From: a plasmid
Reading direction: 5' to 3' (one strand)
Sequence record: NZ_CP014093.1
DNA length: 64,000 bases
Shown: positions 19,838-57,873 of the stretch, piece by piece
Layout: each line of letters starts with the position of its first letter
Numbering within the stretch: the stretch's first letter is position 1
Notes under the pieces: model-generated
The model's database searches: none
What the model saw: only the letters and a program-made list of their open reading frames with translations
Told to the model about the DNA's origin: nothing
Translations under genes and position numbers: made by a program

Positions 19838-19992
19838 CTCTGACGAAGAGTTGTTTGAAGATAAAAAATATAAAGTAAGTTTTCCAGTGTCATCCCTAGC
19901 AAGTTTTTCTCTGTATCTCCCTTAATTCTATATCCTTAAAATAATACTTATGTTCAGTGCACCTTAATTTTAATTTATATAAGGGGCATAAT
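19838..19992 (+). promoter_or_regulatory. cspA-type long 5' leader, copy 1 of a tandem duplication
   Basis: About 155 nt that is roughly 80% identical to 20258-20407. Both copies end in AAGGGGCAT-ATG. Confidence 0.5.
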
Positions 19993-20202
19993 ATGTCTAA
20001 TCAAGTAATTGGTACAGTAAAGTGGTTTAATGAAGCTAAAGGCTTCGGTTTCATTTCTCAAAATAACGGCGACGACCTATTCGTTCACTTCCGCAACATC
20101 GTTGGGGATGGATTTAAAAAACTTATTGAAGGCGACAAGGTTTCTTTTACCGTAGGTAAAGGTCCTAAAGGGCTTCAAGCAGAAAATGTAACGACGTTGT
20201 AA
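19993..20202 (+). CDS. csp: cold-shock protein CspA family
   Basis: [33 protein letters not shown] contains the RNP1/RNP2 motifs. Confidence 0.9.
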
Positions 20203-20257
20203 TAGTCTTACAAAACTTAGCTTCCTTATCGCTTGTAATCCAGTGGTAAGGAAGTAG

Positions 20258-20407
20258 TAGCTCTGATCAATAGTTGTTTCAGATAAAAAAGTATAAAGTC
20301 AGTTTTCCCAGCGTCATCCTTAATAAGTTTCTCTGTAAGCTCCCTTCATTCTATATCATAAAATAACGCATGTTCAGTACACCCTAATCATTAAGTAAGG
20401 GGCATTG
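20258..20407 (+). promoter_or_regulatory. cspA-type leader, copy 2
   Basis: Duplicate of 19838-19992. Confidence 0.5.
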
Positions 20408-20557
20408 TATGTCTAATAAAATCATTGATTTAATAAATGTATCTAATAATAAAAAAATCAGTAAAAAGAAAAAATCAAATAGTCAAAAATCAAAACTTGA
20501 CCTACTTCAAAGAATAACAAGTGGCCAAAGTGGTGTGGTTTTGGAGGTTTTATTTTG
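20408..20557 (+). CDS. small lysine/serine-rich peptide (49 aa) driven by the duplicated csp leader
   Basis: ATG sits in the same context as the csp ATG (GGGGCATTGTATGTCTAAT). Translation: MSNKIIDLINVSNNKKISKKKKSNSQKSKLDLLQRITSGQSGVVLEVLF. Confidence 0.35.
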
Positions 20558-21165
20558 AAGAATAATGGTAGAAAGAAAATTTGGTTTAAATTAAGAAATA
20601 AAAATAAAATTTTTGAAAGCCAAACTCATAATTAATTTTTCTTAACGTATTTTATCTTATCAATAGTAACTATTGACTCTGGAGTGGTACGTTAACGAAC
20701 ATCGCCAGTTTTTGAGCCATTTGCTCATCAACAAGACTATTCTAATAGCTCAATCCAAACACCATTGAAAGGCGAAATAGCTCGGTGAAGTAGTCTGCTA
20801 CCTCACTACATTAACCAAATGTCAGGTAACGGATTAAGCTTTACCCGTAGTGCCTTGTGGACACCGGTAAAGAACACAGTAAAACGTTGATAATAACTGA
20901 CTCATTATCCGACTAATCCTAATCTTCTTGAGCAGTTTATTCCATTTCTTGGACGAGACTGAACTTGTCCATTACTTTCTCTAAACGCTCTGTCGAAAAC
21001 CTTGCTCAGATCATCAATCTTGTCGCGCCGTTTTTTCTTGTAGGCGATGTCGCAGCCGGTAATTGGCGGGTTAGTTTCTGTTCTGTAAGAAGTGAAACTA
21101 AATTGACTAGATTCCTGACGAGGCACTATTTCAGTAACTCGGCCCAACCGAACTACTGGAATAAG

Positions 21166-21654
21166 TTATTTAATGTTGATACCTAATCGAACTGATATGC
21201 CTAGAACGTTGGCCAGCCCGATAAGTGACGATAAAGAAGGGTTGTCGCGCGGGTGTAAGGTGTTATCCATACCTTTGGCCTTGGTAACGGTAGCTAAGGC
21301 TTCTGCAATGATCTCGGGCTCGCCAGTGCTTGCCGCTTCATCAATATAGGCTTGGATAGTCTGTTGGTTGGTTAAGTATTCGGATGGCTCTAACTCTTTT
21401 AATTGAGAGGTCACATGATCACTCTCTTTCACAATAAGACCACTCACCTGATTAACTTGCTGTATCGCGGTTTGAACGGCTTCGCCGTATGAGTCAGTTT
21501 CTCGGTCGAAATCGATACGAATATCGCTGCCAGATGCAGATACGGTGCAATCATTGGCACCAACCCCAACGAGCGCATTAGATAGCTCGCAAAGCGTGTC
21601 TGCGTTCATGTCGCCTTGGAACCTGGCCATCAGTGCAAAATCAAACTCTTTCAA
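21166..21654 (-). CDS. protein with C-terminal addiction-module antidote-like HTH domain (HigA-like), unique 100-aa N-terminal extension
   Basis: C-terminus EPEIIAEALATVTKAKGMDNTLHPRDNPSLSSLIGLANVLGISVRLGI resembles addiction-module antidote HTH proteins. Last gene of a 4-gene minus-strand operon. Confidence 0.5.
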   Translation of the reverse strand: MKEFDFALMARFQGDMNADTLCELSNALVGVGANDCTVSASGSDIRIDFDRETDSYGEAVQTAIQQVNQVSGLIVKESDHVTSQLKELEPSEYLTNQQTIQAYIDEAASTGEPEIIAEALATVTKAKGMDNTLHPRDNPSLSSLIGLANVLGISVRLGINIK

Positions 21655-21727
21655 TCATCAATCCTCTCTTTAAGCAATTAGTGGCATTTTAGCCTTAACC
21701 ATAAGCCACCGTGCTGGTGGCTTATGG

Positions 21728-22390
21728 TTAGCTTCGTAACTCGTTTTCTCGATATTGCTCTATTGATTGCTCCAAATGCTCTGCGTTCTTGGGTGAGCTC
21801 ATCAAGTGATCAGTTTCCGATAGGATTTCTTCCCAATCCGGTTCTTCCAACGTTGGCCACAACATCAAATCATCGATGTCAACGTCCTTAAAACCAATCT
21901 TTGAGTAGTAGCCTTTAAGCGTCTCTACGCTTTCCTCGGAGCGATCTTCTAACGGGAACGCCTTTAGACCAATAATGTCGTAAATCGACGTGAATCGCGC
22001 AATAAAGTCCTCAATTAAGGCTTTAGAATACTTGTTGCCTCGATGCTCTTTCTTCACTTTCAGTTCGTGGATGACAATAAGGCGATCTGGTTCTGGACAG
22101 ACTCCCCAACGCATTTCTACGTTGCGTTCTTCAATGCTTGCTTTTAGCAAATAATTATCACCAAGGACTTGAACAAAGTGATAGATGCTACCGTCCACAT
22201 CCAGTAAATCGTGACAGTTTGTAATGTTTGATGCTCTGGCCAAGTCCACGATGTAGAAATCACAAGTAGCAACTTCGGTTTCAGCTCCACTCTCTTTATC
22301 AAGAGCAAACATGCTTGCCGTCATAACGTTGATACATGACTCAACATCATCTGAATAAGGCGCGGTACTTAAGGCGTAGTTAATGATCAT
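21728..22390 (-). CDS. GNAT-family acetyltransferase (start taken at MIINY)
   Basis: IHELKVKKEHRGNKYSKALIEDFIARF matches GNAT motif A. The C-terminus has LKGYYSKIGFKDV. Stop lies 6 bp after the KAP NTPase gene. Confidence 0.55.
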   Translation of the reverse strand: MIINYALSTAPYSDDVESCINVMTASMFALDKESGAETEVATCDFYIVDLARASNITNCHDLLDVDGSIYHFVQVLGDNYLLKASIEERNVEMRWGVCPEPDRLIVIHELKVKKEHRGNKYSKALIEDFIARFTSIYDIIGLKAFPLEDRSEESVETLKGYYSKIGFKDVDIDDLMLWPTLEEPDWEEILSETDHLMSSPKNAEHLEQSIEQYRENELRS

Positions 22391-22468
22391 TGTTCTGTTC
22401 CTTATCTGGTGCTGGTGGCTTAATGAGGGTCGATGGCAATTGAAGAGAACTGGCCACACCATCCTTTG

Positions 22469-24244
22469 TCAAGACGAACCGGACACCCCTGACTTTAACT
22501 CCAAATTACCGCCAAGCCGCTCATGAATTGAGGATATTTTAGATGCGAGCTCAGTTAAAACTCCTAATTTAGCCCCGTAAGGTAATCTTTCTCTTTCATT
22601 CTCGATGCACTCACAAAGCAGGGCTAGAGCGTCAAGCTCTTCCGAAAGAAAATCCTCAATATTGCTAAAGTCATAACGTCGATACATGAAACTAGAAAAA
22701 TCATAAAGCTCCCCGCTTGACCAATTTGTTAACATCTGATCAAAATCTTTCTTCTGGAGGTGTTGTAGGAAAGGTTTGGAGCCGTACTTTTGTTCAGTAG
22801 CTTCGACACAGCTGTGCCAAGACTGCACTAACTGCTCTTTGTAGACTGCCATTTCACTCGCCTGCATACCAGTAGCTTTATCGCATAAAAATTCAGATAT
22901 TACGTTTAGCAAACGACTGTTTTGTACATAGTACCCTATATCTCTACCAAGCATATTCACATACGCTGCTGACTCAAATATGAATTTATCAAAAATTTTC
23001 TTGATATTAGAAACAAACTCGTCGAAATCATATTCTATATATCTGTGTTCTATCATAAAAGAATAGGCACTACAGGCTCTGCACCAATTGACAAAATCCG
23101 TTGGTTTTGGGTTGTCTATGTATTGCTTAAATCTTGACAACCGCTCTGACAACCACAAGTCGTCATGTCTACGAAACTGATAATCCAATATTTCTTGAAT
23201 GTCATCAGTTGCTACAGGCAACTTCATCTCGGTTTCTAAATCTTTAAACCTGTTATCATAGGCTGCTATATATCTTACGTGGCTATCGGTGGTGTGAGGC
23301 CTAAGAGGATGGATTAAACTTCTGAGCAACTCTATCCTTTTATCTTGTTCAGTTTCCCCCTTTGTTTTCCTATGGATGAGTGGATTTTCATGTAGGGCTT
23401 GCAAGACCTCGTCCAAGGAAAATTCATGATGGAAGATAGCGAAGCATGTCGCTAGTGATGTAATAAGATTGTGTTCATCGATTTGTCTGTAGTCCAATTC
23501 ATCCTTTCGAATAAATAGATTACTTATGGCATAAAAACGATCTACAGCGCGCCTAATTATGCGAATATTATCTACCTCATACTTGCGAAGCATGTCTTCA
23601 ATAATTTGCTTCGCCTCATTTGATAAGGTCTTTTCTTCAATATAGATTTGATCGATAACTGACATTAAATCGGTAGGAGTTCGACTTAAGTGCACTATGT
23701 CACTAAACACTTTTTCGATGTCTGCCTTCTTCTCTATCTTTCCCTGATTTCCAATGACAACGATTTTTATATTCTTATTTTCACATAGATTTAGGCATTC
23801 GCCCAATATCTCTGACTTTACATTCTCGTTAGAAAGGCGCTCTAGATCGTCAATGAATAATACTCGATCATTCAACTGATTAAAGTAATGTTGCTTTACA
23901 ATTGAACCAACATTACCAAGCGCTTTCCCTACTCCTCTAGTTCCCTCTAGTGTTTGCATGGCAAAATCGCCTACACCACTATAGCGCTTTGCGAACCACC
24001 CTGTTTGTTCATTACGACTGTACACAAGAGAAAGCAGCCGAGTTTTAAAATCATCCAGATCCGAAACACCGTATAAAGAGAGGTAATGCCCCTTATGTGT
24101 GGCTTTGTACTTATGCGTCAAATAGGGCATCAAGGTCTGCTTTACAAAATACGTTTTACCAACTCCCCAGTGCCCATCTAACAAAACTATGCTTGGAAAG
24201 CTAGATTCTTGGAGCAACTTATAAATACGTTCCTCAATTTTCAT
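22469..24244 (-). CDS. KAP-family P-loop NTPase
   Basis: Walker A LLDGHWGVGKTYF (the G.WG.GKT form typical of KAP NTPases). Walker B LFIDDLER. Long helical C-terminal region. Start taken at MKIEER (ATG 24244, AAGG RBS). The ORF track shows a longer GTG-initiated version reaching 24286. Confidence 0.65.
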   Translation of the reverse strand: MKIEERIYKLLQESSFPSIVLLDGHWGVGKTYFVKQTLMPYLTHKYKATHKGHYLSLYGVSDLDDFKTRLLSLVYSRNEQTGWFAKRYSGVGDFAMQTLEGTRGVGKALGNVGSIVKQHYFNQLNDRVLFIDDLERLSNENVKSEILGECLNLCENKNIKIVVIGNQGKIEKKADIEKVFSDIVHLSRTPTDLMSVIDQIYIEEKTLSNEAKQIIEDMLRKYEVDNIRIIRRAVDRFYAISNLFIRKDELDYRQIDEHNLITSLATCFAIFHHEFSLDEVLQALHENPLIHRKTKGETEQDKRIELLRSLIHPLRPHTTDSHVRYIAAYDNRFKDLETEMKLPVATDDIQEILDYQFRRHDDLWLSERLSRFKQYIDNPKPTDFVNWCRACSAYSFMIEHRYIEYDFDEFVSNIKKIFDKFIFESAAYVNMLGRDIGYYVQNSRLLNVISEFLCDKATGMQASEMAVYKEQLVQSWHSCVEATEQKYGSKPFLQHLQKKDFDQMLTNWSSGELYDFSSFMYRRYDFSNIEDFLSEELDALALLCECIENERERLPYGAKLGVLTELASKISSIHERLGGNLELKSGVSGSS

Positions 24245-24323
24245 TATCAACCTTGTAAAATTAGAGCTATTCGTAGATCTAACCACAGATAGATAATTCT
24301 AGATATGCAGTTGATAACATTTA

Positions 24324-24674
24324 TCAACTAAATTTCATAATAGATAGAATCGAGCCACCAACATCGTGGGTTTCTTGCGTTTGGCCGCTATCCAAAATCA
24401 AAGAGTGAATAAGCACATCCCAATCAATGCCCTCTTTCTCGATCAAGTAAACCGTATCAGCTAGATAAGTTAAAAATTGATATTGGGAATCAATATCTGT
24501 GTAGCTTTCTTTGGCTTTGTAAGTAATCTCATCAAAATAAGCACAGAGTGAACCCCAAAACTTAACACTGCTACTTGCTGTCGCTTTCATCTCATAAATA
24601 TGATCAACACGTAGCTTGATGTCAGTGAAAAATCGCTTTATCTGGTGGGCGTATGTGCCTCTCTGCATTAGCAC
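24324..24674 (-). CDS. hypothetical protein, first gene of the KAP/GNAT operon
   Basis: 116-aa ORF, 37 bp upstream of the KAP gene on the same strand. Confidence 0.4.
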   Translation of the reverse strand: MLMQRGTYAHQIKRFFTDIKLRVDHIYEMKATASSSVKFWGSLCAYFDEITYKAKESYTDIDSQYQFLTYLADTVYLIEKEGIDWDVLIHSLILDSGQTQETHDVGGSILSIMKFS

Positions 24675-24789
24675 TATACCAGGGTTAATTAATGGGTTTT
24701 ACCGAAAAATCCATGAATTAAATTCATTTCTTAAATGGCTCCGATTGAGCGTAATCTAATCCTACCCCAGGATTATGGTAATCCTTTTT

Positions 24790-24799
24790 ATTCCGAACA
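24790..24799 (-). promoter_or_regulatory. element motif ATTCCGAACA
   Basis: Exact 10-mer in the divergent intergenic region 24675-24920. Confidence 0.5.
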
Positions 24800-24890
24800 T
24801 GTAAATTTATATCAATGTATGTTTTTTTGATATTAAGGGCTAAATTAGTTATTGCATATGTTATTTTTGATATGGTAGTCTCACCACCCC

Positions 24891-24900
24891 ATTCCGAACA
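24891..24900 (-). promoter_or_regulatory. element motif ATTCCGAACA, 20 bp upstream of ATG 24921
   Basis: Exact 10-mer. Confidence 0.5.
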
Positions 24901-24920
24901 CACTTAATTCTTTGTAGAAA

Positions 24921-25280
24921 ATGACCATAAAAACGTTCAATACCAGCAAAGGCACTATTGCCCTGTCTAACCACGGAGCAACAGTATCGATGGCCATTAA
25001 CCGCAACACTGGCGCGGTAGCGAACGTGTGTGTGAGTTGGGTGTTAGGGAGTGCAGATGAGGCGAAAGCCTTTATTGAGGGCGCAGACGAAAAAGCGATA
25101 CGAAATGAAATGCCTCGCTTTTCCATGTGCGCTGATGTGGTTAAACAACTAGACAAGGCGCTGGCCAATGGCAATTCCAAAAAACCAGTTGAGCCTACTC
25201 ATAGAGCTTATGGAAGCTCTACCGCTAGATGGAACGGTCTACGAAATGCCACTACAAGTAGAGTTTATCCCGCACGATGA
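24921..25280 (+). CDS. hypothetical protein
   Basis: 119-aa ORF. Overlaps the next ORF out of frame, so boundaries are uncertain. Confidence 0.35.
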   Translation: MTIKTFNTSKGTIALSNHGATVSMAINRNTGAVANVCVSWVLGSADEAKAFIEGADEKAIRNEMPRFSMCADVVKQLDKALANGNSKKPVEPTHRAYGSSTARWNGLRNATTSRVYPAR

Positions 25281-25626
25281 AATCTACATCGGCTATTTCG
25301 ATACGACCGTCATTGACCGCATGCAAGGGCTAGGAATTATCACGTTACTTGGGGTGCATGATGATGAGCGACAAGCTATCAAACTCAATGAGCGTGACGA
25401 TTTTCTAGCAAGCTGGTCGGCGGGAGTGAGTGAGGCTCGCAATGGCTCAGATCTGCATTATGCAGACTACAACAACAACCAATATGCGTTTACTGCCGGA
25501 TACGAGCACTGGCATAACCGCAACAAAAAGGCGTTAAAGGGAAGACTTACGCATTACTCAACAAGTAGAGAGTATCTATGTCATGGATTTATTGACGAGG
25601 ATACGGGTGAAATTTGGCATCAATAA
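25168..25626 (+). CDS. hypothetical protein (start uncertain)
   Basis: 152-aa ORF. Confidence 0.35.
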   Translation: MAIPKNQLSLLIELMEALPLDGTVYEMPLQVEFIPHDEIYIGYFDTTVIDRMQGLGIITLLGVHDDERQAIKLNERDDFLASWSAGVSEARNGSDLHYADYNNNQYAFTAGYEHWHNRNKKALKGRLTHYSTSREYLCHGFIDEDTGEIWHQ

Positions 25627-25642
25627 CAAAAGGTAACTAACT

Positions 25643-26176
25643 ATGACTTTGGGTAATCTACTTCTAGCAATTCTTGAGCAGAGAACACAAACAGGCTATG
25701 ACCTAACAAACCGAACAATGCCTGAATCTGGCGCATGGCAAGCCAGCCACCAGCAAGTGTACCGCGAACTTGGTCGCATGACGGAAAAGGGTTTAGTGTC
25801 ACACGAAATTGAAGCGCAAGACGGTAAACCAGACCGCAAGAATTACAGCTTAACTCAAGACGGCGAGCATGTTCTTAACCTTTTACGCAACGAATCTACA
25901 TGCGATGGCCTGTCTATCATTCGTAGTCCTGCATCGGTGATGCTGGAAATCGGCAGCGAGGTTTACTTCAAGTCGTACATTGAAAAACTCAATCAAGAAA
26001 TAACGCAACTTAAAGAGAAGCTGAACGCGCACCAGAAAGAGAAAGGTGTGTTCTGTGACAACTTCACACTGCATGTAGAGCGCGACATTGATATGCGCAA
26101 AGCAGAGCTTAAGTTTGCCGAACGTTCACTATTTATGATCACTTCCTCAAACATTGCTACGGAGAATGCTGCGTGA
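25643..26176 (+). CDS. PadR-family winged-helix transcriptional regulator with C-terminal coiled coil
   Basis: TQTGYDLTNRT...SHQQVYRELGRMTEKGLVSHEIEAQDGKPDRKNYSLTQDGEHVL matches the PadR signature. Confidence 0.65.
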   Translation: MTLGNLLLAILEQRTQTGYDLTNRTMPESGAWQASHQQVYRELGRMTEKGLVSHEIEAQDGKPDRKNYSLTQDGEHVLNLLRNESTCDGLSIIRSPASVMLEIGSEVYFKSYIEKLNQEITQLKEKLNAHQKEKGVFCDNFTLHVERDIDMRKAELKFAERSLFMITSSNIATENAA

Positions 26177-26361
26177 AACCTCGCAAAGCCGTTTATCTTT
26201 TAGTTGGCTCGCCAGCGCTTAAACGAGCCAAAGAGTGTTTAACTCGAAATCAGCCTTGGGACTACGAGGGCAAGCTCATGAAGATCGTCAGTTTGGGGCA
26301 ACGTATGCGTAACGATGACGGCAAGCCATGCCATCGAGTTTTAATTGAGAGTTACTTCTGA
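26173..26361 (+). CDS. hypothetical small protein
   Basis: 62-aa ORF followed by a strong terminator. Confidence 0.35.
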   Translation: MKPRKAVYLLVGSPALKRAKECLTRNQPWDYEGKLMKIVSLGQRMRNDDGKPCHRVLIESYF

Positions 26362-26368
26362 TAGGTAC

Positions 26369-26398
26369 AAAAAAACCGCGAATAAACGCGGTTTTTTT
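26369..26398. terminator. bidirectional rho-independent terminator
   Basis: AAAAAAACCGCG-aataaa-CGCGGTTTTTTT. Confidence 0.75.
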
Positions 26399-26496
26399 GC
26401 GGCTGGCCTTAGCAAACAGTTCGAATCAGCAAATTCGAGTTACCAGCCTTTTCATGTTCCACCAGCAAATGTGAAACAAGAGCAAGCAAATAGTAG

Positions 26497-27171
26497 GTGT
26501 TTTTAATGGCTTTGACAATAGCAGAGAAACTTCAAAGACAACGAGAGAAGCAAAAACAATCAATGGAACGGGCGCGAGCAAAGCAAATCGCCAAAATGAA
26601 CGATCCCGAGGAACGGCAGAAACGCTTCAAAAAGCAATTACAGCAGCAAGAGCGTCAGCGCCAGCGACAAATCGAGCGCTTAAATGATCCCGAATACCAG
26701 AAAAAGCAGCGTGACAAACAGCAACAGCGCATCGAGCGCCAAAAAGCGAAGCCTGTAGCGAAGAAACCGACCAAAAAGATCGCCAGTAAGGGATTGAAAG
26801 GCCGAACGCCCACGGCAGAGGAAAGGCGCATCATGGATGCCATTGGCCGCTTACCATGTATTGCGTGTTGGCTGCATGGCCGAGAGAATCCGGTGATTTC
26901 CTTGCATCATGTGTTTGGTCGTGTTGGAGAACGGGCGCATGCGTATGTATTACCCTTGTGTTGTTATCACCACGACACGCTACTAGAAGCGGAGAAGCGC
27001 GCTCAGTATCCCGATATGATACCTATCCACGCAAAAGGGAAGTACGGCGGGAAAGCGCAATGGAAGATCCACAACGGTACAGAGATAGAGCTGTTGTTTA
27101 AGGTCTATAATCTGGCGGGATTGCCACTTGAATTGCTCGAAAACATTTACCCTCAACATTCCGAACATTAA
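26497..27171 (+). CDS. Ref-like HNH endonuclease-fold protein (DUF968-like) with repetitive basic N-terminus
   Basis: C-terminal GRLPCIACWLHG...ISLHHVFGRVGERAHAYVLPLCCYHHD has Cys/His zinc-binding motifs like phage P1 Ref. The N-terminus has internal repeats (MNDPEERQKRFKKQLQQQERQRQRQIERLNDPEYQKKQRDKQQQRIERQ). Confidence 0.5.
   Translation: MFLMALTIAEKLQRQREKQKQSMERARAKQIAKMNDPEERQKRFKKQLQQQERQRQRQIERLNDPEYQKKQRDKQQQRIERQKAKPVAKKPTKKIASKGLKGRTPTAEERRIMDAIGRLPCIACWLHGRENPVISLHHVFGRVGERAHAYVLPLCCYHHDTLLEAEKRAQYPDMIPIHAKGKYGGKAQWKIHNGTEIELLFKVYNLAGLPLELLENIYPQHSEH
27158..27167 (-). promoter_or_regulatory. element motif ATTCCGAACA at the 3' end of the Ref-like gene
   Basis: Exact 10-mer. Confidence 0.45.
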
Positions 27172-27268
27172 TTAATATAAACACCATTAACAGGGCTGAA
27201 AAGCTTGGTTAATAGTGTTAAACTGACCAAGACTCCCCATCTTAAAAAGCGCGCTTAGAGGTCACAAC

Positions 27269-35504: not shown

Positions 35505-36683
35505 TCAAGCGGCTAACGCCGACTCTCCACAGGCTAACAAGCGGTGTCCCCGCTCTAAAATATTTAATGCGCCAACAATATCTGCATTGTTGGTGTAACC
35601 ACACTTAATACACTCAAAATGAGATTGAGTTTTACGGTTATCTTTCGATACATGACTGCAACAAGGGCAGGTTTGGCTTGTGTATTGCGCTGGCACAGCG
35701 ACAACTAAACCACCATTCCATAATTGCTTGTACTCTAGTTGTCTTCTGAACTCATACCAACCCTGATCAAGTATTGATTTGTTCAGCCCTGACTTAGCTT
35801 TCACGTTTTTACCGTGCTTTTCTGCATTGCCTTTTGCTGACTTAGACATGTTTGATACACGTAAGTCCTCAATCACTATCATCGCGTGGTTCTTGCTGAT
35901 TTGATGTGAGGCTTTATGTAAGTAGTCCTTGCGACAATTCGCAATGAGAGTGTGTAGCTTTTGAATTTTGGCTTTCTGTTTCTGCCAGTTAGCAGAAAAC
36001 TTAACCTTTCTTGATAGCTTGCGCTGTTCGACAGCTAAGCGCTTTTCATGCTTACGGAATGCGTTAAGCGGTTTTAGATATGAGCCGTCTGACAATGTGA
36101 CTAACTTGGCAACACCCATATCAATACCAACGGCAGAGCTAGAGGTATGCTTAGGTTCATCAATTTCTTGCTCAACTTGGAACGAGATATACCAGTGACC
36201 AGACTTAAAACTAACAGTACAGTTCTTAATGTTGCCTTGTACTTCTTGTGATTTGCGAAACTTCAGCCAGCCAAGCTTGCTCGGTAGCTTTACACGCTTA
36301 CCATCTAGTTCGCAGTATTTGTTGAAGTTAACAAAGCGCACTGAATCTTGGTTTTTGCCTTTATTTTTAAATCTAGGCTTATCAGCAGCTAATGACTTGT
36401 CGAAGCATCGCATCCAAGCCGTATGAAGGTCTTTGAGCTTTTGCTGTAGATTGTCAGTGTATGCCTCTTTGAGCCAAGCAAGATCGTCTTCTTTCTTCCA
36501 TTGCGTGAGTTGCTTACACAGTTCAGCGTAGTTCGGGATCTTCTCGCCAGAGTCCAACTTGTTTAAGCAGTGGCGCAAGCCTTGATTCCACACAAATCGA
36601 GCATGACCGCAAAGCACAGCAAGTCTAGCCGCTTGGGTAGCGGTAGGCTCTAACCGAAATTTGTATGCTTTGCGTATTAACAT
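35505..36683 (-). CDS. tnpB: TnpB (IS605 OrfB-family RNA-guided endonuclease)
   Basis: RuvC-like segments and a C-terminal zinc finger CPCCSHVSKDNRKTQSHFECIKCGYTNNADIVGALNI. Confidence 0.85.
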   Translation of the reverse strand: MLIRKAYKFRLEPTATQAARLAVLCGHARFVWNQGLRHCLNKLDSGEKIPNYAELCKQLTQWKKEDDLAWLKEAYTDNLQQKLKDLHTAWMRCFDKSLAADKPRFKNKGKNQDSVRFVNFNKYCELDGKRVKLPSKLGWLKFRKSQEVQGNIKNCTVSFKSGHWYISFQVEQEIDEPKHTSSSAVGIDMGVAKLVTLSDGSYLKPLNAFRKHEKRLAVEQRKLSRKVKFSANWQKQKAKIQKLHTLIANCRKDYLHKASHQISKNHAMIVIEDLRVSNMSKSAKGNAEKHGKNVKAKSGLNKSILDQGWYEFRRQLEYKQLWNGGLVVAVPAQYTSQTCPCCSHVSKDNRKTQSHFECIKCGYTNNADIVGALNILERGHRLLACGESALAA

Positions 36684-49865: not shown

Positions 49866-52013
49866 TTGTCGGATAGGCGACACCTGTTACCAGATGCCGC
49901 CCTCCTAAGAACCGTACGTGCAACTTTCACTGCATACGGCTCAAGCCTCCACTAAGGCGTTATTGTAACCCAGCAACTCACAAAGCAGTGGCGACAGGGT
50001 CAAACCATGAGTTACGACCTGTGTTTTTCACCTTACGTTCATTGAGAAAACCTTCCCAAAAAGGATCGAACGGGTTCGCTTGACTCATGATTTTTACATG
50101 TCGCTTAATTGGCATCTGACCGATTTGAAACAGTCGGATCACGCCATACAGTCCATCCTTTTTAAACCAGCCATGGAAAATCCATTGCCCTTGATAGTTT
50201 AGAAAGTACTTATGTGCGATCCATTTGCGCCCCTTGTTTGGGTGACGCCTGACTGACCATCGCCATAACGCTAGAAACATCTGGTGGCCAACATAGCCGA
50301 AGGTTTGTTTAGCAACACAATGGCGATAGTAATTCGCCCATCCTCGTAGTTTCGGATTCATCATCTTGATGAGATCGGCTACTGGGATTGTTGCGTGTTT
50401 TCTAATGAGGTCACGCATGTTTCGTAAGAATGATAATACGTTGGACTTGCTCGGTTTAATGAGCAATTTCCCTTTGTACTTTCTGGCGTTAAAACCAAGA
50501 AAGTCAAAGCCATCATTGATATGAGTCACATGCGTTTTCTCTTCAGAAAGCGTTAAGCCTCTTTCTTGTAAGAAAGCCATCAGTTGCGGCTTAATGTCAT
50601 TCATAAGGGCTTCCTTTGAAGATCCTGTGATAACAAAGTCGTCAGCATAACCTATAAAGTTTACTCTGCTGCCTGTTTTGCGAGCGATAGACTTAGTTAA
50701 CTTTTCTAGTCCGACAAGAGTAAGCAACATCAGGGTGGGTGAAATTATCCCGCCTTGTGGTGTTCCCTCTGCCGTTTTGTAGAACAGCCCCTTGTCTATA
50801 TAGCCACATCCCAGCCATTGCTTGAGCATCCTTTTGTCTGTCGGGATATTATCCAAGTAGCCACTGGTGACCTATCTTGTCAAAACAAGCTTTGATATCC
50901 CCTCAAGAACCCATTGTGCTGCTCCCTTTTTGCATAGGCATTTGAAGCACTGCTGTATTGCATCGGCTGCGCTTCGATTGGGTCTAAAACCATAGCTGTT
51001 AGGGTCGGCAATTGTTTCAGATATAGGTTCTAGTGCTAGAAGATGTAACGCTTGTTGCGCTCGGTCTATCATACACGGGATACCTAATGGTCTAAGCTTG
51101 CCGTTTTTCTTTGGGATATAGATTCTTCTGAGCGGTTTGGCCCGATAGCCTTTTCTGCTCAGTAAACTGACTGCCGCCATTCGACGTGCATCGGTGTTCC
51201 AGGTGTCGCCGTCAATTCCTGGCGTTTTACTGCCTTTGTTTTGTGATACTCGACGAACAGCGAGAAGCTTTGCTGTTTTCGAGTGAGTCAGTATCCACTG
51301 TAGTGCTTTCGCCTTACCGTGTTTACCTTCTCGGATTGCTTTTGCAATGCGCATCTGGATGCCTTAACACATGGCGCTCAACCGCTTTCCAGTCGATGGA
51401 TTGCCATTGGGCGCTGCCAGAAGGGGCACTCACTTCATGAGAAGAGATCATCTGCGTTCCTTCTTAAATAAAGTTTTCCAAATCATCTTGCAATGGGAGA
51501 CCAGTTGGAAGTGGGCACACTTTCGTGTCAGACATCCGTCTGTATCTGCAGCATTCGCTTTTTCCAACCTCCGTTACCAGCACCGCTATCGGCTCTCTTC
51601 ACAGACAGCTTTCCCGAAGGAACGATACTGGCTTACCGTGTTCCGCATGTCGCGCAATATCAGGGTAGATGTCCACTATAATGCGGGGAGCCTGTCGATC
51701 ACGAAAGAGCACTGTCCAACCTCTTTCCTACTCCCTTAGCCGTTTGGCTACAGCGTATTAACCACTTCCGCTGCTTCACGCATAACGCACCTTACATGGA
51801 TTCACTTTCATTCATCATACTGATTCTCTAGCACTCACCCAATTCGTGGTTATCAGGAGGAGCATCCCCTCACGGTTTTGCTCCCGTTTGGCACAATTCC
51901 AAACTTCGTTACATTGTCAGGCTCGCTGCTTTATTCAGAGCCTTAGGGTCGTCTGGTGATACAAACGGTTCACTCTTATCGCGGTGAACAGAGCTTCATG
52001 CGACTTCACGTCG
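49866..52013 (-). mobile_element. bacterial group II intron with intron-encoded reverse transcriptase/maturase
   Basis: Domain V GAGCCGTATGCAGTGAAAGTTGCACGTACGGTTCT lies on the minus strand at about 49905-49940. A GTGCGAC 5' consensus lies at 52007-52013 (minus). Boundaries are approximate. Confidence 0.7.
49978..51354 (-). CDS. group II intron reverse transcriptase/maturase (frameshifted at 50856-50875)
   Basis: RT motifs include PKKNGKLRPLGIP, GYADDFVI (YADD) and a maturase X region. Split into ORFs 50872-51354 and 49978-50856, with the GDIKACFDKIGHQWLLG segment in a third frame. Confidence 0.8.
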
Positions 52014-56787: not shown

Positions 56788-57873
56788 TGCGACACTTTTT
56801 ACAGATGCGCATGAATATACTCCGTTGGTGTCCTATACCCAAGTCTTTTGCGTGGGCGCGTATTTAATTTGTGTGCAATTTCATTGCAGAGCTTCTGTGT
56901 CACGTGTGACATAGAAGTTCGTTTTGGTAAGTATTGTCGTATCAAGCCATTGGTGTTTTCATTAGTCCCTCGCTCCCATGAGTGGTATGGATTTGCAAAG
57001 TAAAACAGACAGTTATGGTGTTTCTCTAGTTGTGCGTAACCATGAAATTCAGTGCTATTATCCGCAGTTATCGTCTTAAAAGGTAAGTCAGAGCGGGTCA
57101 TGATTTTGCTCATTCTTACGTTGAGCGACTCGCTTGTTCTATCGTCCATTTGCCCAATAAAAGTGTAGCCAGTCATTCTGTCGACTAAAGTCACGATACA
57201 GTGCTTGGTTCCGCGGCCAACGACGGTATCAATTTCCCAGTGACCAGGCTCTTTTCGATGCTCAGCTTTTGCAGGTCTTTCGGTAATATGGCGCTTTGTT
57301 GCTAGCCGCCCTCGGCTGTCTTTTGAGTTATACCTTTTACGTCTTTTCTTGGTGGATTGTCGTAGGTGTTTCCATAGTGTTCCACCGAGAGTTTTGTCGT
57401 TCCAAACATGCTGATAAATGAGCTCGTGACTCATTGTTGGGTAGCCTCTTACGTTTAGGTATCCGACGATTTGGTCAGGGCTCCAATCCAGTCTTAACAA
57501 GGCTTCAGGTAACCTAAAGTCGATTTCGCTATAGCGCTTATTTCTGCGCGATCGGCTCAATCGGTTGCGAGCCATTTGTTGGGCTCTCCATGCCTGATAG
57601 GAGTACCTTTTAAAGTGTCTGTTATATCGGGAGTTGCGTTCAATTTCTCGATAGATAGTGGCTTTGTGACGACCCAGTTGTTTAGCTATTTTAGCGGTAC
57701 TAATTCCTTGCTTTCTGAGTGCAGAAATCATATACCTTTCGTTCTCAGTGAGGTGTGTGTATTTCATGTTTTTTACTTCTTGGCGGGAGCAAACTTCATG
57801 ATTATCGCATCTCACTGTTTTTATGTTCAGAGGTGTCGCACTTCGTACTTGAATCCAAGACACATAACAAACT
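56788..57873 (-). mobile_element. IS30-family IS, copy 1 (transposase 56799-57767 minus)
   Basis: Transposase [45 protein letters not shown]...DDE. Imperfect terminal IRs GAGGTGTCGCACTTCGTACTTGAATCCAAGACACATAAC and CTTAGTATCAAGTTTGAAGTGCGACAC. The nucleotide sequence matches copy 2. Confidence 0.8.

Follow-up and report, generated by a model that had tools for sequence, protein, structure and literature searches.

The KAP family of P-loop NTPases was reportedly described by Aravind et al. in 2004. Several KAP-type NTPases are linked to phage exclusion, among them PifA of the F plasmid (T7 exclusion) and QatA of QatABCD, and single-polypeptide KAP NTPases (EF_KAP of Enterococcus faecalis and three gut-metagenome open reading frames [ORFs]) block phages, with defense by EF_KAP depending on its Walker B motif and its C-terminal region (PMC13552941). 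The int-psu locus of P4 satellites is an antiviral defense hotspot (PMC9122126); a 2026 study that picked 8 unknown P4 loci at random found 6 to protect against phage, one of these being "Reve," a single-gene ATPase/KAP P-loop system of Escherichia coli P4 satellite hotspots (PMC13586616). Here, we analyzed a 64,000-nucleotide (nt) stretch of plasmid record NZ_CP014093.1 (the window, to which all coordinates refer unless a comparison locus, numbered with the prefix L, is named), in which a KAP gene lies among three small neighbors. A first-pass annotation had described four co-directional minus-strand ORFs at positions 21166 to 24674, all of which are present (termed p1, KAP, p3, and p4 herein), and had interpreted them as one KAP + GNAT + helix-turn-helix (HTH) system. 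Comparative genomics instead splits the locus into a p1/p4 framework and separate KAP and p3 modules. The reading that we favor, with a probability of about 0.7, is that it is a mosaic, located where a Vibrio phage-plasmid carries variable cargo and consisting of the framework genes p1 and p4, a lone, probably anti-phage KAP module of the PDC-S49 type, and an independent GNAT module.

The source of the window is a ∼125-kb element of Vibrio alginolyticus. Genes for P1-type small and large terminase subunits, a tail protein, a Ref nuclease, and a C1-like repressor are found in the window on a plasmid replicon, which identifies the element as a P1-like phage-plasmid. Matches to the region come from V. 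alginolyticus plasmids of 93 to 217 kb in replicon cluster 803 that are predicted to be nonmobilizable. Between a cold-shock gene and a PadR gene, related plasmids carry wholly different genes, and because they differ completely there, we consider this interval a cargo hotspot. The earlier suggestion that the locus is carried as phage cargo (a moron) held up, in that the host is a P1-like phage-plasmid and the cargo includes a candidate defense gene. The exact KAP protein is intact in at least 52 Vibrio (V. alginolyticus) assembly blocks, on contigs of ∼70 to 130 kb and always in the same context. A megablast search with a 7-kb region gave no match in a phage collection; in a plasmid collection the element family was present, with no record containing the KAP cassette. 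One locus (L001) listed without p3 and with a short p4 reflected a gene-calling difference only, as both genes are intact there.

Relatives that carry no KAP gene (L090 to L093) delimit the inserted DNA. They share with the window positions 19900 to 21704, which include all of p4, and positions 24363 to 27200, which include residues 1 to 102 of p1. Because relatives without KAP carry the whole of p4 and these residues of p1, we regard p1 and p4 as framework genes of the hotspot. The four genes had been placed together in an AT-rich insert; however, the inserted DNA, which extends from 24364 to 21703 (2,664 nt; junctions at 24363/24364 and 21703/21704), holds only KAP and p3, and its AT richness is weak (GC content of 0.401, compared with 0.422 for the window mean, 0.352 for the left flank, and 0.475 for the right flank). 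A block 96.6% identical to the insert is found in a plasmid of Vibrio sp. T9 (L094), where it is flanked by different genes. At a further locus (L105) with an 84% identical KAP, the shared DNA starts exactly at 24364 and is then followed by unrelated genes for 208- and 262-amino-acid (aa) proteins, and at two loci with p3 only (L090 and L100) the shared DNA begins exactly at 22423. These module boundaries are read directly from the compared sequences, and the insert itself is composite, made up of a KAP module and a p3 module. The 2.66-kb insert brought two independent modules into the hotspot between the cold-shock and PadR genes.

The KAP module begins with a leader of 120 nt (24245 to 24364, minus strand), at the outer end of which lies the left insert junction. 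In all three contexts (the window, L094, and L105), similarity to the window begins exactly at this 24364 end, and the leader is 98 to 100% identical across them, whereas the KAP coding DNA of L105 is ∼8% different. The leader is probably regulatory, and its retention across contexts despite the divergence of the coding sequence argues for a self-contained, self-regulated KAP module. An inverted repeat (TTGATAA-atg-TTATCAA, ∼24311 to 24327) lies within it and overlaps the p1 stop codon. A scan for promoter and terminator consensus sequences yielded fewer hits than shuffled sequence, with no consensus promoter in the 120-nt leader.

The p3 module has an edge of its own. Its 5' end and leader (22391 to 22423, minus strand) contain only the left arm, TAAGCCACCAGCAC (22409 to 22422), of a terminator motif, and this 14-mer occurs exactly twice in the window, there and in a hairpin located 3' of p3 (21697 to 21729, minus strand). 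The hairpin is derived from an intrinsic terminator and has a perfect 14-bp stem (free energy, −28.3 kcal/mol; z = −6.2); the right insert junction, 21703/21704, coincides with the stem's end, and the window copy has thereby lost its U-tract. In four comparison loci (L090, ∼8861; L091, ∼3914; L093, ∼3229; L094, ∼8523), the stem AAGCCACC-AGCAC-GGTGGCTT is followed by TTTTTTG and stands after different cargo genes. We infer that these terminator copies may act as recombination anchors for cargo swapping; the recurrence of one terminator sequence where modules end points to a simple way in which cargo could be shuffled.

If KAP and its three neighbors formed a system, their homologues would be expected together elsewhere, and the neighborhood check that had been proposed was made on 12 loci with full-length KAP homologues at 24 to 55% identity, from Vibrio, Pseudoalteromonas, Psychrosphaera, Rheinheimera, Marinomonas, Psychromonas, Serratia, and two metagenome-assembled genomes (Alteromonadaceae bacterium and Streptococcus). 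In a scan of genome contigs, the KAP relatives among the matches listed were mostly similar in the N-terminal domain only, those at L009 to L016 being full length. No homologue of p1, p3, or p4 was found within 6 to 8 kb of KAP in 12 of the 12 loci, and the four sets of homologues do not co-occur in other genomes. The compared loci thus show a lack of conserved KAP partners: no neighbor is common to the 12, the exception being a pair of loci, L095 and L098. These two (L095, 3326 to 5495; L098, 7846 to 9950) have, within ∼1 kb of KAP, another KAP NTPase, which is of the PDC-S20/PifA/QatA type (58% identical between the loci), and also share a protein of 125 to 135 aa (32% identical), in a different gene order. 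This could be a recurrent pairing or simple clustering in defense islands.

The surroundings of the KAP relatives support a role in defense. In Vibrio, relatives are found within islands that bear an integrase or a resolvase, next to a PDC-S20 KAP NTPase and an AAA_15/AAA_21 + HNH gene pair. In the Vibrio campbellii island (L095, 9741 to 11678), this pair consists of an AAA_15/AAA_21 ATPase and an HNH nuclease, and recombinase fragments are present as well; L095 and L096 share a site of insertion in the chromosome, adjacent to the genes for a YgjP-like protein, a methyltransferase, and a glutaredoxin. An E. coli relative, P0035 (586 aa; L101 to L104), is the sole gene between the integrase gene and psu of P4-like satellites, and of 5,426 complete genomes, 19 contain homologous DNA. 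P0035, which also matches PDC-S49, is 26% identical to the window KAP protein over the full length and 16% identical in the C-terminal half.

Against this background, the proposal that all four genes constitute one uncatalogued defense or toxin-antitoxin operon appears highly improbable. Gene starts were chosen from a reading of the sequence, public gene calls, and alignments of homologues. With these starts, the sizes first given for KAP (∼590 aa), the GNAT (∼220 aa), and p4 (162 aa) stand, and the 116-aa protein becomes one of 114 aa. The intergenic gaps are 79 nt (p1-KAP), 78 nt (KAP-p3), and 73 nt (p3-p4): of the two gaps of 37 and 73 bp reported earlier, the second is correct and the first is the 79-nt gap, and a spacing of 6 bp between the KAP stop and the GNAT start applies only to the longest p3 ORF. 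Hence, the genes are co-directional and separated by 73 to 79 nt, as an operon could be, but they do not overlap and cannot be called tightly packed. Loss of the U-tract from the hairpin after p3 would make read-through into p4 possible, and p4 resembles an addiction-module antidote family. On the other hand, p1 and p4 are found at 77 to 93% identity in relatives with entirely different hotspot cargo, p1 is truncated by the insertion in this plasmid, p4 results from the fusion of two genes found apart elsewhere and leaves the HTH half of its profile unmatched, and no KAP homologue outside this plasmid lineage, in the same 12 loci, has any of the three partners.

The first gene of the hotspot, p1 (24324 to 24668, minus strand; ATG at 24668, with a maximal ORF to 24674 that would encode 116 aa), retains residues 1 to 102, which are 77 to 93% identical to genes in the KAP-less loci L090 to L093. 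Its codons 103 to 114 (24324 to 24362) came with the KAP module and replaced the native C terminus, and the p1 tail of 12 to 13 codons travels with KAP in L094 and L105. Searches of p1 against Pfam, PADLOC, NCBIfam, and PHROG matched no family.

At the other end, p4 (21166 to 21654, minus strand; 162 aa from a TTG start at 21654) is a fused form of two 82-aa genes, which L090, L091, and L094 carry separately. In L090 (9978 to 10487), the two halves are in the same frame, with one stop codon and four codons between them; in L091, they are in different frames. The C-terminal part had been compared to addiction-module antidote HTH proteins. The resemblance stays just below thresholds (Pfam dnstrm_HI1420 [PF21716], 25.4 bits versus 27; NCBIfam TIGR02684, 37.5 versus 53.7), and the HTH portion did not hold, since both HI1420-type matches cover profile positions 2 to 48 of ∼90 and leave the HTH half unmatched. 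The match to phrog_4268 ("transcriptional repressor"; 6.8e−15) fits 90 profile positions to 76 residues, with ∼14 residues missing. Judged by profile coverage only, the C-terminal part of p4 appears to be a HI1420/HigA-like remnant with no match to the HTH half; a sequence search of this part against solved structures gave nothing usable. A toxin to accompany such an antidote was not seen either: scans with Pfam, PADLOC, NCBIfam, and PHROG found no HI1419/RelE-ParE-type toxin family in p1, p3, KAP, or the p4 N-terminal domain, and in relatives the 82-aa gene upstream of the HI1420-like gene encodes the p4 N-terminal domain, which is of no named family, and not a RelE-like toxin. The p4 N-terminal domain weakly matches PADLOC PDC-M06B (1.4e−5) and is paralogous to the N-terminal domain of a 179-aa hotspot protein (L094, 8989 to 9528; also in L090 and L091) that matches the same model at 2e−24. 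The C terminus of this 179-aa protein looks like an excisionase/MerR-type HTH.

The KAP gene (22469 to 24244, minus strand) encodes 591 aa from the ATG at 24244 (maximal ORF to 24286, 605 aa). Pfam KAP_NTPase (PF07693) matches residues 17 to 187 with 33.7 bits (gathering threshold, 20), and the public precomputed annotation agrees. Of the family assignments made from the letters of the sequence, that of KAP is thus borne out by hidden Markov model (HMM) searches, whereas those of the GNAT (18.7 to 19.0 versus 27 bits) and of the HigA-like protein (25.4 versus 27 bits) fall short of the Pfam cutoffs. The Walker A (G.WG.GKT) and Walker B (DDLER) motifs were recognized correctly, as GHWGVGKT at residues 24 to 31 and DDLER at residues 132 to 136, and Walker A and the extended Walker B (FIDDLER, 130 to 136) are invariant in 27 family members. 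The module is also less novel than had been proposed, because the KAP protein matches a candidate single-gene family of PADLOC-DB v2.0.0, PDC-S49, with all three of the following HMMs: PDLC05031 (E = 1.6e−31; 107.8 bits), PDLC05029 (2.6e−22), and PDLC05030 (1.4e−12). Among PHROGs, the full length of the protein matches a family of unknown function.

Transmembrane helices between Walker A and Walker B are typical of many prokaryotic KAP members but are not universal. The window KAP protein has no transmembrane helix, the highest 19-residue Kyte-Doolittle mean being 0.97, far under transmembrane values. In the AlphaFold2 (AF2) model (predicted local distance difference test [pLDDT] score of 83.7), an NTPase with a helical lid (residues ∼1 to 245) is followed by an all-helical half (∼250 to 585), and residues 83 to 122, where the transmembrane segment is usually positioned, form a low-confidence soluble helical hairpin. 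With its catalytic motifs intact, this soluble ORC/STAND-like NTPase module would serve as an NTP-driven switch.

The two halves of the protein differ in their evolution. Divergence is faster in the C-terminal half than in the N-terminal domain (e.g., 28% versus 52% identity), and the ratio of nonsynonymous to synonymous substitution rates (dN/dS) is 0.17 to 0.32 for both halves, indicating purifying selection. Gene-wide positive selection was considered and ruled out, as dN/dS is ∼0.3 in both. Compared with the KAP gene of L105 (183 to 1949), the synonymous divergence (dS) is 0.10 in the NTPase domain and 0.45 in the C-terminal half (∼4-fold), a contrast that suggests intragenic recombination swapping C-terminal halves. 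A search with the C-terminal half only for other architectures returned the two closest relatives only and was uninformative, owing to the sensitivity limit of the word index. Invariant catalytic motifs, a dN/dS of ∼0.3, the conserved N-terminal domain, and intact copies in the 52 or more assembly blocks together support a functional protein, while a role in defense draws on the PDC-S49 match, the position of P0035 in the P4 hotspot, the islands occupied by the Vibrio relatives, the validated single-gene KAP NTPases, and the protective Reve system.

An alternative is that KAP is not a defense protein and instead serves mobile elements as a selfish or accessory NTPase (e.g., in maintaining a plasmid or phage, or in excluding competing elements by a different route), or that p3 is an anti-defense acetyltransferase like AcrVA5. 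Every locus examined lies on a mobile element or next to one, restricting phages may not be what the KAP-domain protein PifA primarily does (PMC13552941), and a literature search found no direct experiment on the PDC-S49 family. We consider this alternative unlikely, given that sole-gene occupancy of the P4 int-psu locus strongly predicts antiviral function, as the protective fraction of unknown loci there indicates (6/8; PMC13586616), that the family sits in the PADLOC candidate set, and that the AcrVA5 match of p3 reflects the generic GNAT fold. Most likely, the KAP protein needs no partner and, as a member of the PDC-S49 family, acts against phages as a single polypeptide.

The second gene of the insert, p3 (21728 to 22390, minus strand), encodes 220 aa from the ATG at 22390 (maximal ORF to 22462, 244 aa). 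Its assignment as a GNAT did not survive curated HMM thresholds (Acetyltransf_7, 18.7 to 19.0 bits versus 27; Acetyltransf_10, 13 versus 23.6), but the GNAT fold itself finds support in structure prediction and within the family, half of the distant p3 relatives matching GNAT models. On the basis of predicted fold and family transitivity, p3 is best described as a divergent GNAT-fold protein (residues ∼1 to 183). Motif A of GNATs, which binds the acetyl coenzyme A pyrophosphate, has the consensus Q/R-x-x-G-x-G/A. In p3 it reads R117-G-N-K-Y-S, with both canonical glycine/alanine positions replaced; R117 and G118 are invariant or nearly so in the p3 family. The fold is followed by a tail, residues 184 to 220 (21731 to 21840), ending in ETDHLMSSPKNAEHLEQSIEQYRENELRS, that is weakly Phd/YefM-like (Pfam, 17.9 bits versus 29.8; NCBIfam YefM, E = 0.015). 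The window, L094, and L100 have this tail, which the Vibrio parahaemolyticus homologues lack.

p3 is under purifying selection and very rare, with 5 clusters in 5.8 billion proteins and 32 representatives in 1.84 billion. Its closest relatives stand solo on the V. parahaemolyticus chromosome (L089) or in the same hotspot after a DUF4262 gene (L090 and L100). No DUF1778/ribbon-helix-helix (RHH) antitoxin gene lies directly upstream of p3, that place being taken by KAP in the window and L094; upstream of the p3 homologues are a DUF4262 gene or a gene for 139 aa (L090/L100) and an ORF of 38 aa (L089). Neither p3 nor p1 matched PADLOC. A specific affinity of p3 to TacT-type toxins was rejected: the best solved structure for a narrow profile was 7ak7 (E = 7.8e−4), and a broader profile led only to generic GNATs.

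These observations bear on the possibility that KAP and p3 make up a lineage-specific two-gene system, in which KAP would sense infection and control a GNAT that modifies a target of the host or of the phage by acetylation (aminoacyl-tRNA, for instance, as for TacT-type toxins), with the YefM-like tail as a docking or autoinhibitory peptide. The genes lie side by side in the same direction, with the 78-nt gap and no terminator between them and the terminator-derived hairpin after p3; the 2.66-kb block traveled in one piece between two contexts of the hotspot, the narrow p3 profile is closest to the TacT2 toxin structure, and p3 is under purifying selection. However, the 96.6% identity of the two contexts points to recent shared ancestry and not to independent conservation. 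p3 is missing beside the 84% identical KAP of L105 and beside all of the more distant ones in the 12 loci, whereas a tail-bearing p3 occurs without KAP in L100 and p3 homologues without KAP occur in L089, L090, and L100. p3 also has its own module boundary at 22423, its TacT affinity dissolves with the broader profile, and both motif A glycines are replaced. On balance, such a system is unlikely, and a little more doubtful still is its specific form in which KAP recruited the adjacent GNAT as a regulated effector and the tail serves as an intramolecular inhibitor or a KAP-docking peptide. Were it true, KAP + GNAT would be a recently assembled two-gene immune module and would show shared terminator hairpins letting phage-plasmid hotspots build new systems out of single-gene modules. 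A literature search found no paper that links KAP NTPases with GNATs. Under the mosaic reading, p3 is probably an unrelated, predicted acetyltransferase cargo gene that is incidentally cotranscribed with KAP in this lineage.

In the mosaic as we envisage it, the all-helical C-terminal half of KAP would recognize a phage-derived cue and/or act as a nonenzymatic effector, e.g., by binding or sequestration. An NTPase switch combined with such a C-terminal role parallels the validated KAP defense proteins that need Walker B and the C-terminal region. Several points weigh against this reading. The C-terminal half has no recognizable fold match or catalytic motif, so that the effector step is conjecture; KAP and p3 are neighbors with no terminator between them in two contexts (the window and L094); and a literature search found no paper mentioning PDC-S49, which is a bioinformatic candidate. 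In addition, the Enterococcus plasmid KAP proteins are similar to the window protein only over residues 22 to 199 (∼26% identity), EF_KAP has two transmembrane helices and the window KAP none, and the link of Reve to the P0035 family, drawn from description and hotspot, is tentative.

Elsewhere in the window, a fragment of a reverse transcriptase (292 aa; 49978 to 50856, minus strand) matches PADLOC reverse transcriptase and homing endonuclease models at ∼1e−14 to 1e−17 and may be the remnant of a group II intron, and two transposase genes are located at 35505 to 36683 and 56799 to 57863 (both minus strand).

The locus cautions that co-directional, closely spaced genes in a mobile hotspot can mimic an operon and yet be framework genes and single-gene modules. 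Its importance is modest: it would add a transmembrane-less member from a Vibrio phage-plasmid to the newly validated class of single-polypeptide KAP anti-phage proteins. It also ties PDC-S49 to two independent defense hotspots, the E. coli P4 int-psu locus and the cargo site of a Vibrio P1-like phage-plasmid, which therefore makes the family a sensible candidate for experimental validation.

Compared with described systems, p3 shares the GNAT fold with the toxins TacT, AtaT, and KacT, and its narrow profile is weakly best matched to TacT2, but these systems have DUF1778 antitoxins, whereas p3 has no upstream DUF1778/RHH gene and a degenerate motif A; its partnerless homologues in V. parahaemolyticus are unexpected for an active GNAT toxin. 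The window KAP protein matches neither the PifA nor the QatA model of PADLOC even at an E value of ≤1, in contrast to the second KAP protein of L095, which matches them at 2e−21 and 3.5e−16, and scans of ORFs with Pfam and PADLOC found no QatBCD homologues near the KAP gene in the window. Proteins of the EF_KAP type follow the same plan, with an N-terminal KAP NTPase and a C-terminal region of ∼320 to 340 aa that has no known domain, and are likewise encoded by lone genes on mobile elements; their C-terminal region is unrelated to that of the window protein. P0035, like Reve, is a single KAP gene in the P4 int-psu hotspot, and the P0035 family may correspond to Reve. The closest likeness is to PDC-S49. 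The best aligned stretch of the window protein covers only residues 34 to 294, its C-terminal half being too diverged, but KAP relatives at 29 to 39% identity match the model end to end (positions 27 to 617 of 624), and the family resembles the window protein in length (∼590 aa) and in its single-gene organization.

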